From a virus (taxonomy: Duplodnaviria > Heunggongvirae > Uroviricota > Caudoviricetes): DNA of 44,960 nucleotides. Made by a program: the position numbers and the translations under genes. The number at the start of each line of letters is the position of its first letter. Position 1 is the first letter of the stretch. This document shows, in pieces, positions 16,709-38,272 of this stretch. The stretch is from IMG/VR virus record IMGVR_UViG_2529292828_000011. One strand, given 5' to 3'. Below the pieces are notes generated by a model. It did no database searches. It was not told the DNA's origin and saw only the letters and a list, made by a program, of their open reading frames with translations.

Positions 16709-17737
16709 TTATTTCACCTTAACTACCACAAACGCGTCCGGATCCGGCAACACCATCAACGGCGCAGATTGCGTCATGGTATATTCGCACCCCGGGTCCC
16801 CCACCTCTAACCAGTGTTTCGGATAACGAATTGCAGAGGTGATCCCTTCACTCAACGCCTGGTTATCCTGGATTGCGCCATAACAACGGACACCATCCAC
16901 CTGAGTGTTTCCAAGAATCAGTGTGCCTTCCGGCAGATAGCGCTGCTCATCCCCGCTTTCATCAACATACGTTGTTTTCGCCACCATGATGGCCAGATCA
17001 CCGTAATAACCTTTAAAAGAAACCACGGAACCCAGATCTTTCAGCGCGGTTTCCAGTTCAGATTTTGAGCCACGGCGGGTATCCAGTTTTTCACGAAACA
17101 GCTTAAAACCGTTCAGCATACGCCAGACAGTACCGTCCATAATCGCAATATTGATGGTACCGGAAGCAAAATCGCAGTACGCATCCAGATCATGCGTCGG
17201 ATCAAAGGTGTCAACATTCTGTTTTGACCATTCGCGTCCATCTGCCTGCGTTATGTTATTGGCGGCAGAACGTCCAAAATCCACTTCCACCGTCTCAAAC
17301 TGTTCACCGCTCATGGTGTACTTACCCTGCAGAACAGCGCTGACCGCCTGCATTTCTTCCACCTGCACAATCGCCTGCTCTTCCTGTTTCAGGTTGTCAG
17401 TCAGAATACGCAGGCGACGGTAGGCCGGGTCATTAAGACGGGCCGGATCTTCCCCCGGAAGACGCTCCACCGCCTGCTGATAATCCAGCCGGTGTTTTGG
17501 TTTAACATAGCCGGGGCGTAACACGCGGGTTTCACCACCACGACTGCGCAGTACCTTACCTGACACAACCGGAGACACATATGCCGCAACCGGTGTTTTT
17601 CCAGTGATTTTATCCAGCATCACTTCCTGAGTATGGAAAGTGACCGTACGACGAAAAAACAGCTCCAGAAACAGCGCACGGAATTTCACTTTCTGCTCGG
17701 TGTAGCCGAGCAACTGACGCGTGGTAAATAACCCCAT
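16709..17737 (-). CDS. E: major capsid protein E
   Basis: Start at MGLFTTRQLL.. gives 342 aa; strong similarity to lambda gpE through ..SAPLMVLPDPDAFVVVKV. Confidence 0.9.
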   Translation of the reverse strand: MGLFTTRQLLGYTEQKVKFRALFLELFFRRTVTFHTQEVMLDKITGKTPVAAYVSPVVSGKVLRSRGGETRVLRPGYVKPKHRLDYQQAVERLPGEDPARLNDPAYRRLRILTDNLKQEEQAIVQVEEMQAVSAVLQGKYTMSGEQFETVEVDFGRSAANNITQADGREWSKQNVDTFDPTHDLDAYCDFASGTINIAIMDGTVWRMLNGFKLFREKLDTRRGSKSELETALKDLGSVVSFKGYYGDLAIMVAKTTYVDESGDEQRYLPEGTLILGNTQVDGVRCYGAIQDNQALSEGITSAIRYPKHWLEVGDPGCEYTMTQSAPLMVLPDPDAFVVVKVK

Positions 17738-17806
17738 AATTGACTTTCCTTTAAAAACACAAACGGGCCGCATCACGACCCGTTTTTTCAGTTAATCATT
17801 TCACCA

Positions 17807-18142
17807 TCAGGCGTGGCTGATGGCACTTCCCACAAACGCGTTGGCTTTTTTCACCGCATCCACCGAATCCGGCCAGACCAGCGATTCGGTGGCAAACGTA
17901 CCACTTTTGTAGTACGTCAGTGTGGGCTCGGTCCCGGCCAGCGCCAGTACCAGCCCCCCCACAGCCGTTCCGGCTTTCTGACCATCCCATGCCACCAGTT
18001 TTCCGCTGGCGTCATCCAGCATCAGTGGCGTCAGTGAAGGCGTGGCAACACTGATACCACTGGTACCTGTTGCGGTATATACCGGATCGCTTCCGGCAAA
18101 AATGCGCCCGTCCGCGCGCTTTTCTGTGGTGGTTTTAATCAT
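17807..18142 (-). CDS. D: capsid decoration protein D
   Basis: Start at MIKTTTEK.. with AGGAGA Shine-Dalgarno 8 nt upstream; lambda gpD-like (..TPLMLD....KLVAWDG..). Confidence 0.85.
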   Translation of the reverse strand: MIKTTTEKRADGRIFAGSDPVYTATGTSGISVATPSLTPLMLDDASGKLVAWDGQKAGTAVGGLVLALAGTEPTLTYYKSGTFATESLVWPDSVDAVKKANAFVGSAISHA

Positions 18143-18182
18143 TTTCTCAGTCTCCTGATTTATCTGAATCACGGATCCACGC

Positions 18183-19661
18183 TTACGGCATACTCATCAG
18201 CAGTTCTTTTTCCCCGTTCCCGGCAGTTCCGCCACCGGAAACGGCACTGGCGGCATGCTGTGCCATGAAGCGCTCAAAAAGTGTTACCTGTGACGGTTGC
18301 GATACTGATGGCGCAGCTGCCAGCAGCGTTTTCGCCTGCTCCACTGTCATTCCCGGTTGTTCAGCCAGCGCCTGTGCCAGTTTTTCGCGTCCTTTTGCTT
18401 CCGGCAACGCAATAATTTGATCACCGGAACTTGCCGTGCCGGTTGCCGGTGCCGCTGCCAGTAACGTTTTCGCCTGCTCCACCGTCATTCCCGGCTGTTC
18501 AGCCAGCGTCCGTGCCAGTTGTTCACGTCCTTTTGCTTCCGGCAACGCAATAATTTGATCGCCGGAACTTGCCGTGCCGGTTGCCGGTGCCGCTGCCAGT
18601 AATGTTTTTGCCTGCTCAACTGACATTCCCTGCTGACCTGCCAGCATCTGCGCCAGTTTTTCGCGTCCTTTCGCCTCCTGACAATTCAGGATCCCCATCA
18701 CGCGCTGATTTTCCTGGGACACCGCTTCAGCAACGGTGAGATTTTTTGGTGTCATCGTATTCTCCTGTGTAACAGAGTCGTTCAGAGCAGAAACCATTAC
18801 ATCAACGGCATCTGCAGCATTAATCAGTTGATCAGCCAGGCCTGTATCAATGCCTGCCTGACCGTCATAAACGGCAGCCTCGGTATTCATCACCACCTCT
18901 GAACTCAGCCCCGTATAAAGTGCCACCTTGTCGACAAACATCCGGCGGGCATCATCAATACGGCGCTGAAAATCCGCACGCACACCTGTCGGCAACGCCT
19001 GAATACTGTTGCCGTCAACCTTGTGCTGCCCGGAGTAAATCAGCGTGATATCCACGCCTTCCTGTGCCAGTTGTTTCTCGTAACTGGTGTGCGCCATCAT
19101 CACACCAATCGACCCAATTTTTGCCGTCTGCGTGCCCAGCCGACGCGTACAGGCCGCCGCCAGCAACATGGCGGCTGAACAGGCCATGTCATTACACAGC
19201 GCCCACACGGGCTTCTGTTCCCGCAGACGGTAAATCATGTCAGCACAGTCAAACGCCCCGGCAGCCTGACCGCCCGGACTGTCGATATCCAGTAAAATGC
19301 CGCGTACATCCGGGTCGTTCACCGCTGACTTAAGACGGGCAGTCAGACCGTCATAACTGGTCATACCGGAATATGGCTGCAGGGTACCCATTTTATGTAC
19401 CAGCGTGCCGCTCACCGGCAGAATGGCAATACCATTTTTCACCTGGTAACTCTTTACCGGACGCGGACCACCAGTCATATAATCGGTAACCTCCAGCTGC
19501 ATACCATCGGCATCAAGCTGAACGGCCTGCTGCGGAACGGCAAGGCTGCCCGCCCCCATCTCCTTACCCAGTGCGCAAAAGAAAACCCGCGCATAGGCGG
19601 GTTCCAGTAAAAGCGGCTCATTAAATGCCATCGCGGCAATATGTGATAAATTACAGCGCAT
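18183..19661 (-). CDS. C: head maturation protease/scaffold C (S49 peptidase-like, Nu3-equivalent C-terminal part)
   Basis: 492 aa; N-terminus ..HIAAMAFNEPLLLEPAYARVFF.. matches lambda gpC; C-terminal scaffold region contains a tandem repeat. Confidence 0.85.
   Translation of the reverse strand: MRCNLSHIAAMAFNEPLLLEPAYARVFFCALGKEMGAGSLAVPQQAVQLDADGMQLEVTDYMTGGPRPVKSYQVKNGIAILPVSGTLVHKMGTLQPYSGMTSYDGLTARLKSAVNDPDVRGILLDIDSPGGQAAGAFDCADMIYRLREQKPVWALCNDMACSAAMLLAAACTRRLGTQTAKIGSIGVMMAHTSYEKQLAQEGVDITLIYSGQHKVDGNSIQALPTGVRADFQRRIDDARRMFVDKVALYTGLSSEVVMNTEAAVYDGQAGIDTGLADQLINAADAVDVMVSALNDSVTQENTMTPKNLTVAEAVSQENQRVMGILNCQEAKGREKLAQMLAGQQGMSVEQAKTLLAAAPATGTASSGDQIIALPEAKGREQLARTLAEQPGMTVEQAKTLLAAAPATGTASSGDQIIALPEAKGREKLAQALAEQPGMTVEQAKTLLAAAPSVSQPSQVTLFERFMAQHAASAVSGGGTAGNGEKELLMSMP
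18309..18677 (-). repeat. in-frame tandem repeat (about 138 bp, 2 full copies plus a partial third) inside gene C
   Basis: Protein shows EAKGRE.LA..LA.Q.GM.VEQAKTLLAAAPATGTASSGDQIIALP twice, then a third copy diverging after ..LLAAAP; matching near-identical DNA units are visible. Confidence 0.8.
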
Positions 19662-21222
19662 CGCCTTTTTCTCCCGTTGTCTGTCGGATCTGCTGTTGAA
19701 ACGCGTCCTTTATCCAGACCGGACGCGGAAGACCGGCAGCCTGTCGCTCCTGAGTTTCCCGTAGCTGCTGGCGGAAAATCTCCTGATAGTCATCCCCCAT
19801 CAGGGCCAGCTCTTTCTCGTATGTACTCAGGCCGCCTTCAATGCGCATCACCGCTTCCTGCACTTCCTTAAGGCCATCAATCGCCATGCGACCGGCACCA
19901 ATCCACTCGGCACGGCACCACCCGGAACGGGCCTCCCAGAATGAGAAACGGGATTTCGGCGGACGGATCACACCACGAATAAGGGCTTCCTCCAGCCAGC
20001 AGGCAAACATCTGTGACGCCAGGCGACTGGCCACAAATTTTCGTTTTCCCATAAAATACCGCCACGACTCATTGGCGGATGCCCTGGCACTGGAATAACT
20101 GACCTGTGAATAATCACGGGAAAGCTGCTCATACGACACACCCAGTCCGGCAGCAATGTAACGTAACAGCGCCTTTTCCAGTTCAGAAAAACCATTATCC
20201 GCATTCTGGGCTGTCTGCAGATTCAGTGAATCTCCCGGGTAAAGATGCGGAATACGGACCCCGCCCAGTTTTACCGTATTGGTGGCGTAATAACGCGCGT
20301 AGCCTTTCATGATGGTGTTCAGGGGATTTTTACCTCCATCTCCCACCCCGGCGATATATTCAAACGCTTTTTCCGAATCCAGTGTGGATTCAATCGTGGC
20401 GGCATACATGGCGCGAACCACCGCCGACTGCAGTTGCGTGGCCTGCAGTGTGTCGAGCATCTTGAGACGCTCCATTACAGAATAAAACTGGTTGGCCCCG
20501 CGGGTCTGCCCGTCTTCCTGTGGCTGAAACACATGGATCATTCCCGGTCGTCCGGAAGGCAGTGTTGCCGTAATTCGTGTCCATTTACTGACACCGTAGC
20601 CGGGCCAGTCATCATCCTGAACATGGTAGGCCAGCGCTTTTCCGTGTCGGTTTATTTCCACCCCGGCACGCATAAAACGATCGCTGGTACCATAACCGGG
20701 TGTACTGACACGCTTCGGGCTGATGGTTTTGAATTTCGTCCGGAATAATGACGTGGATTCCGCATCCCATACGGGCTGGACAAAAATTTCACCGTTAAAC
20801 GTATGGACCCCCACCCCTTCACGAATGAATTCGGTAAACGAACGACGCCCTTCCACATCCATCATACCAAACACCGGATCGCAGTATTCCATCCACGCCG
20901 CCTCAACATCTTCAATAAAAGCATGTGAATCTGCTTCCGACATCCCCAGCCAGCGCCAGTTGGGACGGTAACTCAGACGAAACATGTGCCCGACAATATG
21001 ATCCTTATGAATTTCCACTGCATTCGATGCAATACCGTTGTTACGGACCAGATCATCCGCGCGGGCGTTACCCAGATGAATGGAAGGTAAGAGCGCCACG
21101 TCGGCACTTTCCGGTGCAGGCAGCCATTCTGCCATTTGCCCACCGAACCCGGAACCACCACCAGAATATCCCATGCTTTGCCGTAAAGGCTGCCCATGAA
21201 TATCCACCAGTTCCCCGTTCAC
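19651..21222 (-). CDS. B: portal protein B
   Basis: 523 aa; lambda gpB-like (..GGGSGFGGQ.., ..GNARADDLVRNNG..). Confidence 0.9.
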   Translation of the reverse strand: MNGELVDIHGQPLRQSMGYSGGGSGFGGQMAEWLPAPESADVALLPSIHLGNARADDLVRNNGIASNAVEIHKDHIVGHMFRLSYRPNWRWLGMSEADSHAFIEDVEAAWMEYCDPVFGMMDVEGRRSFTEFIREGVGVHTFNGEIFVQPVWDAESTSLFRTKFKTISPKRVSTPGYGTSDRFMRAGVEINRHGKALAYHVQDDDWPGYGVSKWTRITATLPSGRPGMIHVFQPQEDGQTRGANQFYSVMERLKMLDTLQATQLQSAVVRAMYAATIESTLDSEKAFEYIAGVGDGGKNPLNTIMKGYARYYATNTVKLGGVRIPHLYPGDSLNLQTAQNADNGFSELEKALLRYIAAGLGVSYEQLSRDYSQVSYSSARASANESWRYFMGKRKFVASRLASQMFACWLEEALIRGVIRPPKSRFSFWEARSGWCRAEWIGAGRMAIDGLKEVQEAVMRIEGGLSTYEKELALMGDDYQEIFRQQLRETQERQAAGLPRPVWIKDAFQQQIRQTTGEKGDAL

Positions 21223-36804: not shown

Positions 36805-37770
36805 TTATCCCCTGAAACCAGGCGGAATTTCTGTATCCGGTTCAGAAATATGATTCACACAACGCTGTACAGGTGAACGTCCCAGGCGGATGACCAGTTC
36901 GTCCCATTTTTCACGGAGTTTTGACGGGCTCATGATGTTTTTTACCCAGAATGGATCTCGCTGAACCCGACCAAACATTTCGCAAATTTGTCTGTGGCTT
37001 CTGCCATCCAGCATCCGCATTGTACGCACGTCATTGGCCCAGGCAGTCCAGTTAGGCTCTTTTGGTCGCATGATCTCGCCATCATCACTGGCGGCCTGTT
37101 CGTAGAGACCCACGATCCGTCCCCAGATCCACTGCGCACACGCCAAATCCTCATGGCTACCCCACTGGCGTTTTTTCGTGCTAAACACAACTGCGTCAGG
37201 GTGCCGGATTAAAAAATCCTGTTCAGCCGTCTGCGGGTCCGGTTGCGAGGCTTCCGGACTAAAAGTGTTTTTATTCTCTGTAGTAATCTCTGTTGTATTC
37301 TCTGTAGGATCATCGGGCCATTTTGACCCGATGACATTGGGTCGTTTTGAACCAATGGAGCGTTTCATTTTGACCTCTTCCATCGTGTCATTTTGACCTG
37401 ATGGAGCGGCGCATTTTGAACCGATGGATTCGTTCAATTTGCCACCATCTAAAAGCTCGCTCCCATAGTTGATCGTGTAGAAATTGGTCATATCGCGCTT
37501 TGATTTATTGAGCTTTTCACAACGCAAAAGCCCCAGCGTTTTCAGACTTGCAAACGCGCGCTTTAACGTTGACTCTGACCAGAATGGGAACTGTTCCAGC
37601 CATTGTTCCGTTGTGTTATAAATCCAGCGAACACCATCACATTCCATACCGGAGTTGGTATCTCTCAACCAGTAGTGCAGTTGTTGCAAAACAATGGCTT
37701 CGTTTAAGCCGATTTTCATTGCCAGCTGCGTGTTTATAACCAGTGGGCGTTCAGCAAAAAGAAGACTCAT
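36805..37770 (-). CDS. replication initiation protein (lambda O-like role), with origin iterons inside the gene
   Basis: HTH-like N-terminal domain; internal SIGSK peptide repeats encoded by DNA iterons; position after the cro-side genes. Start at MSLLFAERP.. chosen to limit overlap. Confidence 0.55.
   Translation of the reverse strand: MSLLFAERPLVINTQLAMKIGLNEAIVLQQLHYWLRDTNSGMECDGVRWIYNTTEQWLEQFPFWSESTLKRAFASLKTLGLLRCEKLNKSKRDMTNFYTINYGSELLDGGKLNESIGSKCAAPSGQNDTMEEVKMKRSIGSKRPNVIGSKWPDDPTENTTEITTENKNTFSPEASQPDPQTAEQDFLIRHPDAVVFSTKKRQWGSHEDLACAQWIWGRIVGLYEQAASDDGEIMRPKEPNWTAWANDVRTMRMLDGRSHRQICEMFGRVQRDPFWVKNIMSPSKLREKWDELVIRLGRSPVQRCVNHISEPDTEIPPGFRG
37310..37440. repeat. iteron array (five to six direct repeats of about 20 bp), candidate phage origin
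   Basis: Repeated cattttgacc(c/t)gatgg-type units (cattttgacccgatgacat, cgttttgaaccaatggagcg, cattttgacctgatggagcg, cattttgaaccgatggattcg). Confidence 0.6.
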
Positions 37771-38272
37771 AATTCCATCCAGCTTTTTGTTGGTATTGCT
37801 GTCGATACGCAAGCTTGAAAGCAATTGCTTTTTCTATAAGTTCGTCAGTTTCACGATCTACAACGGCAGGATCTGCAAAAAGCAGTCCGGATTCCACCAC
37901 ATCGCCATATTCTTTATTTAACCCGGCGATCATGTACGTAATACTTTTTCCATCACTGATCTCACGATACAACCTGAAATCACTAATCCGGATAGCCTCC
38001 ATAATTGCAGGCACTAGCGCTGTGAACTTTTCACGCTTATCCCTGGTGTCGATAGCCTTCCAGCGTTCGAATATCTTCACTCGATTAACGCTAAGCGCTC
38101 GCTGATCAACCGCGCCACCTTCATATGTGACACGCTGAACATCGATGTTCGGGCGCTCTTTCAAAGCCCAGAATGCTTCAGTGATTAATATCGTCGCCTG
38201 CTCCTGTGTCATTCCTGGTCGACATATCCAGGCATCCAGAGCCTCACGAGCCTGTTCAGGAGTGATTTTCAT
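37751..38272 (-). CDS. hypothetical early-operon protein (cII-position; possibly YdaT-like)
   Basis: 173-aa ORF directly downstream of dicC; no confident family assignment. Confidence 0.4.
   Translation of the reverse strand: MKITPEQAREALDAWICRPGMTQEQATILITEAFWALKERPNIDVQRVTYEGGAVDQRALSVNRVKIFERWKAIDTRDKREKFTALVPAIMEAIRISDFRLYREISDGKSITYMIAGLNKEYGDVVESGLLFADPAVVDRETDELIEKAIAFKLAYRQQYQQKAGWNYESSFC

Follow-up and report, generated by a model that had tools for sequence, protein, structure and literature searches.

We describe here a tandem array of a 46-residue protein module in the scaffold part of a gene homologous to gene C of bacteriophage lambda. The gene lies in a 44,960-nucleotide stretch of DNA, referred to below as the window, from a virus of the Caudoviricetes (IMG/VR record IMGVR_UViG_2529292828_000011). 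We favour the view, to which we assign a probability of roughly 0.7, that this is a genuine coding array of a helical module in a lambda-type protease/scaffold gene, that the multiplication of the module is ancient, that its units recombine with one another, and that the module acts as a contact element whose repetition makes the scaffold multivalent.

Results

The array encodes three modules in one reading frame

Tandem Repeats Finder identifies at positions 18316-18678 of the window a repeat with a period of 138, 2.6 copies, 88% matches and 0% indels, whose score of 579 exceeds that of every other repeat in the window by far. A period of 138 nt corresponds to 46 codons, which keeps the repeat in frame within the 492-residue open reading frame (ORF) at 18183..19661, and the units of the protein begin at E329, E375 and E421. 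The array is made up of three copies of a 31-residue core, EAKGRExLAxxLAxQxGM(S/T)VEQAKTLLAAAP, and two copies of a 15-residue linker, ATGTASSGDQIIALP, in the order EAKGREKLAQMLAGQQGMSVEQAKTLLAAAP-ATGTASSGDQIIALP, then EAKGREQLARTLAEQPGMTVEQAKTLLAAAP-ATGTASSGDQIIALP, then EAKGREKLAQALAEQPGMTVEQAKTLLAAAP, after which the protein runs into a unique tail. The gene, its parts described here and the flanking portal, decoration and capsid genes all lie on the minus strand. As delimited by the repeat finder together with the translation, unit 1 (E329-P374, a 31-residue core and a 15-residue linker) is encoded at 18540..18677, unit 2 (E375-P420, core and linker) at 18402..18539, and unit 3 (E421-P451, a core only, followed by the tail) at 18309..18401. 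An initial annotation of this DNA had described an in-frame tandem repeat of a module of about 46 residues, which both the 138-nt period and the translation bear out, and the interval it gave, 18309-18677, is exactly that encoding E329-P451. It had also called the 138-bp repeats near-identical, which overstates their similarity; the units are 88% identical, with units 1 and 2 matching at 121 of 138 nt, and 16 of the 17 differences between these two fall in the first 75 nt, leaving one in the last 63.

The units of the window protein are 78-91% identical to one another and follow a regular 46-residue period, and a profile hidden Markov model (HMM) of the module matches the protein three times, at residues 328-358, 374-404 and 420-450, whereas it matches the corresponding proteins of lambda, N15 and ev099 once each. 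That lambda gpC has the module only once, as had been claimed, agrees with the single occurrence of the peptide EEAHGREEQARVLAETPGMTVKTARRILAAAPQ in lambda C (J02459). We note that the structural unit starts about nine residues earlier than the repeat unit, at a short helix that reads RVMGIL in unit 1 and DQIIAL in the other two, so that in this register there are three complete structural units rather than 2.6. The earlier description of two full copies and a partial third thus holds for the 2.6-copy span of the DNA repeat but not for the structural units. The unique C-terminal tail, S452-P492 (18186..18308), carries FERFM and LLMSMP motifs, and comparison of the translations indicates that it is common to phage 21-type scaffolds and, more loosely, to lambda-type scaffolds; its conserved columns among 69 homologues are F462, M466 and P492.

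The array lies in the scaffold part of a lambda gpC homologue

The ORF that contains the array (18183..19661) encodes a prohead protease/scaffold fusion of 492 residues homologous to lambda gpC, as judged from the ORF list, from Pfam and PHROG matches and from resemblance to SppA in the PDB. Residues 146-290 (18792..19226) form an S49 (SppA-like) peptidase domain (Pfam PF01343, Peptidase_S49; E 4.3e-32, 111.7 bits against a cut-off of 24.9), and the protease part resembles SppA structures both by sequence (E 3e-16) and by fold (E 1.5e-7). Ser162 is invariant in the 69 homologues and aligns with the Ser of the GSMAASGG motif of SppA. The whole protein matches the head maturation protease family phrog_53 (E 1e-201), and in its C-terminal part three stretches are matched by several PHROGs of scaffold or capsid-assembly proteins. 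Within the same frame, an ATG at 18755-18753 begins a nested ORF of 190 residues (18183..18755; first residues MTPKNLTVAEAV) that is equivalent to lambda Nu3 or phage 21 gp6, and a Shine-Dalgarno-like AGGAGA, read from the sequence at 18761..18766, lies 5 nt upstream of it. This internal ATG aligns with the annotated start and ribosome-binding site of phage 21 gene 6, the Nu3 equivalent, as well as with starts picked by gene callers in many homologues, and by homology it would be used to make a separate scaffold protein. Because the array is downstream of this start, it sits in the scaffold part of the protein. The placement of the array in the Nu3-like part of gene C by the initial annotation is therefore supported by the S49 match, the phrog_53 match, the gene order and the internal AGGAGA-N5-ATG, and its remark that the scaffold is lengthened agrees with the 190 residues of the nested scaffold as against 137 for the lambda-type gp6 of N15 and phi80.

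The flanking genes are those of a lambda-type head module, in the order portal-C-D-E, with gpW and terminase genes upstream in the source contig. A lambda-family portal gene is immediately upstream (19651..21222; PF05136, Phage_portal_2, E 3e-95), a gene for a gpD-like head decoration protein is immediately downstream (17807..18172; PF02924, HDPD, E 1.5e-19), and a gene for a gpE-like major capsid protein follows (16709..17776; PF03864, Phage_cap_E, E 4e-64), its likely product having 342 residues from MGLFTT. The window gene thus combines the S49 domain, the head-module position, the module (IL-x3-EAxGRE...LAAAP) and the C-terminal tail that characterise the lambda gpC/Nu3 type.

The units diverged before the prophages did

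Between pairs of cores in the window the synonymous divergence (dS, Nei-Gojobori) is 0.42-1.06, and the ratio of nonsynonymous to synonymous divergence (dN/dS) is 0.08-0.18; between the window and its orthologues in E. coli PapRG-04-4 dS is 0.19-0.22. E. coli R1 (NZ_CP031706) has a four-unit gene, whose cores 1, 2 and 4 correspond at 98, 100 and 99% DNA identity to cores 1, 2 and 3 of the window. Core 1 of the window is 98% identical to unit 1 of PapRG-04-4 also and core 2 100% identical to unit 2 of VG35A2 also, yet the window cores are only 80-88% identical to one another. Because orthologous units in different prophages are 98-100% identical and units within the window 80-88%, we conclude that the units diverged before the prophages did. 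The units of phage 21 differ at a proportion of synonymous sites (pS) of 0.62-0.69, which is near saturation, and the amino-acid motif persists. On these substitution patterns, each copy is seen to be under purifying selection.

Copy number differs in whole units among close relatives

Copy number in complete genomes was surveyed by BLAST with the two flanks only as the query, the span between the two matches giving the length of the array. Among 58 sampled complete E. coli records, 52 have four units, five have five and one has three, and the complete genome of E. coli PapRG-04-4 has three. The RefSeq proteins have 492 residues in PapRG-04-4, 538 in R1 and VG35A2, and 584 in STEC313 and STEC005, steps of exactly 46 residues, and the module HMM counts three, four and five units in proteins of these lengths. 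The initial annotation had proposed checking whether copy number varies between strains, and the three, four or five units found among close relatives confirm that it does. In the best 120 full-length homologue clusters, three units (70 clusters) and four units (41) predominate, with one unit in a single cluster, two in four and five in three, and one truncated match has none; out-of-register and larger internal duplications are included among these clusters. Three units are also found in Gifsy-1, in coliphages 4A7, ev017 and PhiR5_1, and in prophages of E. coli, Shigella, E. albertii and Trabulsiella, and a separate scan of contigs gave five loci, four of which are of phage 21 type with three units. 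Lambda, ev099 and N15 have one unit.

The capsid protein is identical (342/342) in PapRG-04-4, which has three units, and in VG35A2, which has four, and that of the window is identical to both at 337 of 342 residues. With the same capsid protein accompanying scaffolds of three and of four units, the constraint on copy number appears to be loose. We considered a link between unit number and the size of the capsid or genome and rejected it, given that lambda (one unit) and phage 21 (three units) have homologous capsid proteins of about 341 residues and that an identical capsid protein occurs with three and with four units. To our knowledge, a polymorphism of three, four and five units with recombination footprints in close relatives has not previously been described, although such a polymorphism is unsurprising for a 138-bp tandem array.

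Further rearrangements are seen in genes of phage 21 type. These comprise an internal duplication of 156 residues, which takes in the array together with the end of the protease domain, a fourth unit that is out of register (…ACPGMTEMTVEKARP…) and two-unit forms without unit 1; the proteins concerned are P0164 (657 residues), P0171 and P0172 (551 residues), and P0169 and P0230 (449-451 residues). In E. coli SE11 (NC_011415.1, 1759387-1760886) the flanks match the window lineage at 86% and the array is of phage 21 type, with three diverged units; because window-like flanks surround a phage 21-type array, this head gene is evidently a mosaic with a recombination joint between flanks and array.

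The window allele carries probable marks of recombination between units

The flanks of the R1-type gene are 98.9% identical to those of the window, and an alignment of the 3' parts of these genes contains two differences only, a 138-nt gap and a patch of about 50 nt. The gap (alignment columns 305-442) places at 18456..18457 of the window, between ...TTACTGGC and AGCGGCACCGG..., the junction at which one 138-nt unit of the four-copy relatives is absent. The patch, at 18544..18594 (columns ~167-217), surrounds linker 1 and is a probable gene-conversion tract, in that it departs from linker 1 of R1 and PapRG-04-4 and matches the linker of the next unit: linker 1 of the window is 98% identical to its own linker 2 and 96% identical to linker 3 of R1, as against 64-67% to linker 1 of R1 and PapRG-04-4. 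On the simplest reading, the window allele would be a four-copy allele that has lost one unit and has undergone a short gene conversion over linker 1. The most recent change in unit number would then have been a loss from four and not a gain from three, and we favour loss given that identity between the additional unit of four-unit alleles and its neighbours reaches only 83-89%, too low for a fresh duplicate.

The triplicated module was recorded in phage 21

In the GenBank record of phage 21 (M81255), gene 6 carries repeat_region features labelled 'Tri1 box', 'Tri box' and 'Tri3 box', with the comment 'function unknown'. The gp5 and gp6 proteins of phage 21 (homologues of C and Nu3; M81255, also OL657228) resemble those of the window in gene position, in the nested scaffold start and in having three in-frame modules, and the full-length proteins are about 63-64% identical. 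The module HMM places the phage 21 units at residues 325-355, 375-405 and 422-452, as compared with 328-358, 374-404 and 420-450 in the window, where three tandem in-frame modules likewise occupy the region equivalent to gp6/Nu3. A triplicated module was thus on record in phage 21 three decades ago, and the window is a further case. Among the papers searched, none deals with 'Tri boxes' or with the number of repeats in scaffolds of lambda type, and the prior record in phage 21 is taken from the GenBank feature table. Unit 1 of the window is orthologous to Tri1 of phage 21, at 81% amino-acid identity and with a common MLAGQQGMSVEQA signature, whereas units 2 and 3, which have no one-to-one match with Tri2 and Tri3 (56-66% identity), are closer to each other (91%), consistent with a later homogenisation of these two units. 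The two systems differ further in that the phage 21 units are strongly diverged from one another (proportion of nonsynonymous differences, pN, 0.21-0.32), with unequal linkers and a period of 47-50 residues, whereas the window has a regular period of 46 residues, and the unit number of its lineage ranges from three to five.

Lambda gpC/gpNu3, N15 gp5/gp6 and phi80 gpC/gp6 share with the window the S49 protease, the nested scaffold and the module SRIMGILNCEEAHGREEQARVLAETPGMTVKTARRILAAAP followed by a tail of about 40 residues; unlike the window, they have a single module, which comes after a long low-complexity stretch of Thr, Ala and acidic residues. The module cores of the window are 53-66% identical to that of lambda, and DNA similarity between the window and the lambda group is confined, in megablast, to a patch of about 70 nt at the 5' end of the gene.

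The module is widespread, mostly in single copy

No Pfam model for the module was found in a Pfam search of the window protein; T2SSK, HTH_15 and Bac_DNA_binding gave sub-threshold matches at chance level and were disregarded. A search with the module profile against 1.84 billion representative proteins (E <=0.001, 50%-identity clusters) matched 480 representatives, and the best 144 new representatives have one copy in 128 cases, two in 13 and three in 3. Since single-copy proteins dominate these matches, one copy is the general state. The consensus, roughly RxMxIL-x3-EAxGRE-x-LA-x2-LA-x4-M-x-V-x2-A-x2-LAAAP, marks the module, on comparison of these proteins, as the one conserved element of the lambda-type scaffold family. 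Its position is also characteristic: of 54 single-copy proteins that are 380 residues or longer, 52 have a module ending 40-71 residues before the C-terminus.

Stand-alone proteins of 160-200 residues with two modules (ERRRLARIMGTPEAAGRE… and ILALPEAKGRE…) were also noted (P0068, P0085, P0095, P0097, P0115, P0116 and P0261). They come from Bradyrhizobium and from metagenomes and are presumably phage-derived scaffold genes. The occurrence of two modules in such distant proteins points to an independent duplication there, and the module has been multiplied several times, the stand-alone Bradyrhizobium proteins included.

When the scaffold part by itself served as the query, most of the homologues retrieved were truncated proteins. 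Many database entries labelled 'S49 family peptidase, partial' are on contigs of 0.5-1.5 kb and are cut within or right beside the array (P0001, P0003, P0004, P0020, P0026, P0062, P0064 and others); some of these clusters represent 90-380 sequences, and breaks at the array are common when E. coli and Salmonella are assembled from short reads.

The modules are predicted to be helical

In an AlphaFold2 model of the full-length protein, each core has two helices preceded by a short leading helix. The predicted local distance difference test (pLDDT) score is about 78-87 locally in the modules and 58.8 for the whole model, and the confidence is usable only locally in the modules. A Foldseek search of the full-length model against the PDB gave only SppA and crotonase-fold matches, all of them to the protease domain.

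Other features of the window

A strong terminator-like hairpin of 11 pairs followed by a T-run lies at 17761-17785 on the minus strand, between the decoration and capsid genes; at the matching position in N15, a putative rho-independent terminator is annotated. Elsewhere in the window, at 37320-37430, there are four or five iteron-like direct repeats, ~TTTTGA(A)CCGATGGAGCG, with a 23-bp period (Tandem Repeats Finder rows 37275-37307 and 37345-37428). They are inside a 339-codon ORF (36805..37824, minus strand) that is without a Pfam match, a layout reminiscent of a lambda-type origin of replication lying within the gene for its initiator.

Discussion

We propose that one reading frame gives rise to two products, a full-length S49 protease with a C-terminal scaffold and, from the internal ribosome-binding site, the nested scaffold alone. 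The module would have been multiplied long ago in the lineage that includes phage 21, Gifsy-1 and the window, with each copy kept since then by purifying selection, and unequal recombination (or slippage) together with gene conversion between units would keep shifting both the number of units and their mosaic make-up. Such exchange would be possible because the 138-bp units remain similar to one another, and it would explain why close relatives carry three, four or five copies. As to function, the module may be a contact element for self-association of the scaffold, for the inner face of the gpE-type shell or for both, and the same contacts would also carry the fused protease into the procapsid. 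Several such modules on flexible linkers rich in Ala, Gly, Thr and Ser would make the scaffold multivalent. In lambda, two-hybrid assays have detected Nu3-Nu3, Nu3-C and Nu3-E interactions, not mapped to the module (PMC3224144).

The scaffold proteins of the P22 gp8 type offer a possible parallel. In these proteins a C-terminal helix-turn-helix binds the coat protein, an arrangement also invoked for phi29 and 80alpha (PMC11922011; bioRxiv 10.1101/2022.12.13.520362), and the likeness to the window module would be one of working principle only, namely a short two-helix element in a flexible scaffold that is expelled or degraded after assembly. The window module gave no sequence or fold match to the P22 type in the PDB searches, is repeated, is fused to a protease and is not at the extreme C-terminus, the last module ending 41 residues before it. 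On present evidence, then, the window protein does not appear to be a member of the P22-type family.

Several observations weigh against the reading that we favour. A scaffold-only AlphaFold2 model of the 191-residue Nu3-like region, built with 21 sequences, is poor (mean pLDDT 51), and the scaffold part has no sequence match in the PDB. In addition, the title of Medina et al. 2011, as cited in PMC11922011, describes lambda gpNu3 as 'intrinsically disordered', so folding of the predicted helices may depend on binding. It is also conceivable, by analogy with P22-type scaffolds, that the conserved C-terminal tail and not the module could be the capsid-binding element; a role for the module in capsid binding or self-association is something that we infer. 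We likewise infer, rather than prove, the direction of the last change in unit number (loss from four versus gain from three).

The initial annotation had suggested that the repeats arose by recent slippage or recombination, and we regard it as highly improbable that such an event in this genome took one module to three. The near-identity of the 3' parts of units 1 and 2, which differ at one position only in their last 63 nt, would fit a recent expansion, as would the change in copy number between close relatives; the former, however, is accounted for by a short conversion tract. The cores differ from one another by a dS of 0.42-1.06, more than separates the window from its PapRG-04-4 orthologues, every unit has an orthologue in other E. 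coli prophages that is 98-100% identical, and three diverged units are already present in phage 21, Gifsy-1 and Trabulsiella. Moreover, the window has one unit fewer, not more, than its closest relatives. The divergence of the units predates the prophages, and a recent expansion in this genome is therefore, for practical purposes, ruled out. It is also decidedly unlikely that the three-copy array is an assembly artefact, the short-read draft having followed a collapsed or chimeric route through an array that is in fact longer. Such an artefact might be suspected because the exact protein is recorded in one draft assembly only (GCA_000355555.2), because the nearest relatives commonly have four copies, and because drafts often break in the array, with 19 cluster representatives ending or starting within it or right beside it. 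Nevertheless, the 667-kb contig of that assembly, AQDV01000018.1, runs unbroken across the array, each unit can be told from the others, and exact repetition within the gene extends to 41 nt at most. A single-base (C/T) difference separates the two similar linkers, which are therefore not one path read twice, and collapse of an R1-like array would not yield an L3-type linker after unit 1. Ungapped three-copy alleles are present, moreover, in the complete PapRG-04-4 genome and in a 492-residue cluster with 196 member sequences.

We consider it extremely improbable that the repeats act as a DNA or RNA element, for instance as binding boxes or a structured element, with the protein repeat incidental. 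The annotators of phage 21 did mark these sequences as DNA repeat regions of unknown function; yet dN/dS between the window cores is low, synonymous sites are near saturation between the phage 21 units while the amino-acid motif is kept, and distant proteins, those of Bradyrhizobium among them, contain the motif as well. Conservation is thus at the protein level, which makes a nucleic-acid role for the 'boxes' unlikely, and between 17700 and 19800 there is no promoter-like site and the terminator-like sites are all below 18130, outside the array. A further possibility, which we hold to be unlikely, is that the extra units serve as neutral spacer within a disordered protein destined for degradation once assembly is complete, so that they are tolerated and their number drifts. 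The loose constraint on unit number keeps this explanation alive: scaffolds of three and of four copies are found alongside an identical capsid protein, copy number varies widely, lambda and N15 manage with one copy, and gpNu3 is reported, in the title referred to above, to be disordered. Against it, each unit is under purifying selection, the prophages of phage 21, Gifsy-1 and Trabulsiella keep three diverged units in the same order, and among the best 120 homologue clusters full-length forms with zero copies were not seen and two-copy forms are rare (4/120). Conversely, unit number might itself be a fast-evolving, selected trait, recombination in the array switching between three, four and five binding modules and so tuning procapsid assembly or the surface sensed by host defences, an idea that we find quite doubtful. 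Its connection to defence is speculative and comes from the finding that in phage Bas13 the scaffold domain of the protease-scaffold fusion triggers a Type I cyclic oligonucleotide-based antiphage signalling system (CBASS), which scaffold-domain mutations escape (bioRxiv 10.1101/2023.05.21.541620); the present results hold no link between the array and defence.

'S49 family peptidase' is the routine annotation of the protein, and the array is a real but ordinary feature, of little value as a discovery. We note that, because the array is a frequent break point of short-read assemblies, unit numbers taken from drafts should not be trusted without spanning reads. Should unit number be under selection, the consequence would be a tuned procapsid assembly or an altered surface for defences to sense. 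Apart from this, alleles with one, two, three, four and five modules, some of them paired with an identical capsid protein, make the array a natural series for studying the Nu3 module and the valency of the scaffold in lambda-type procapsid assembly.

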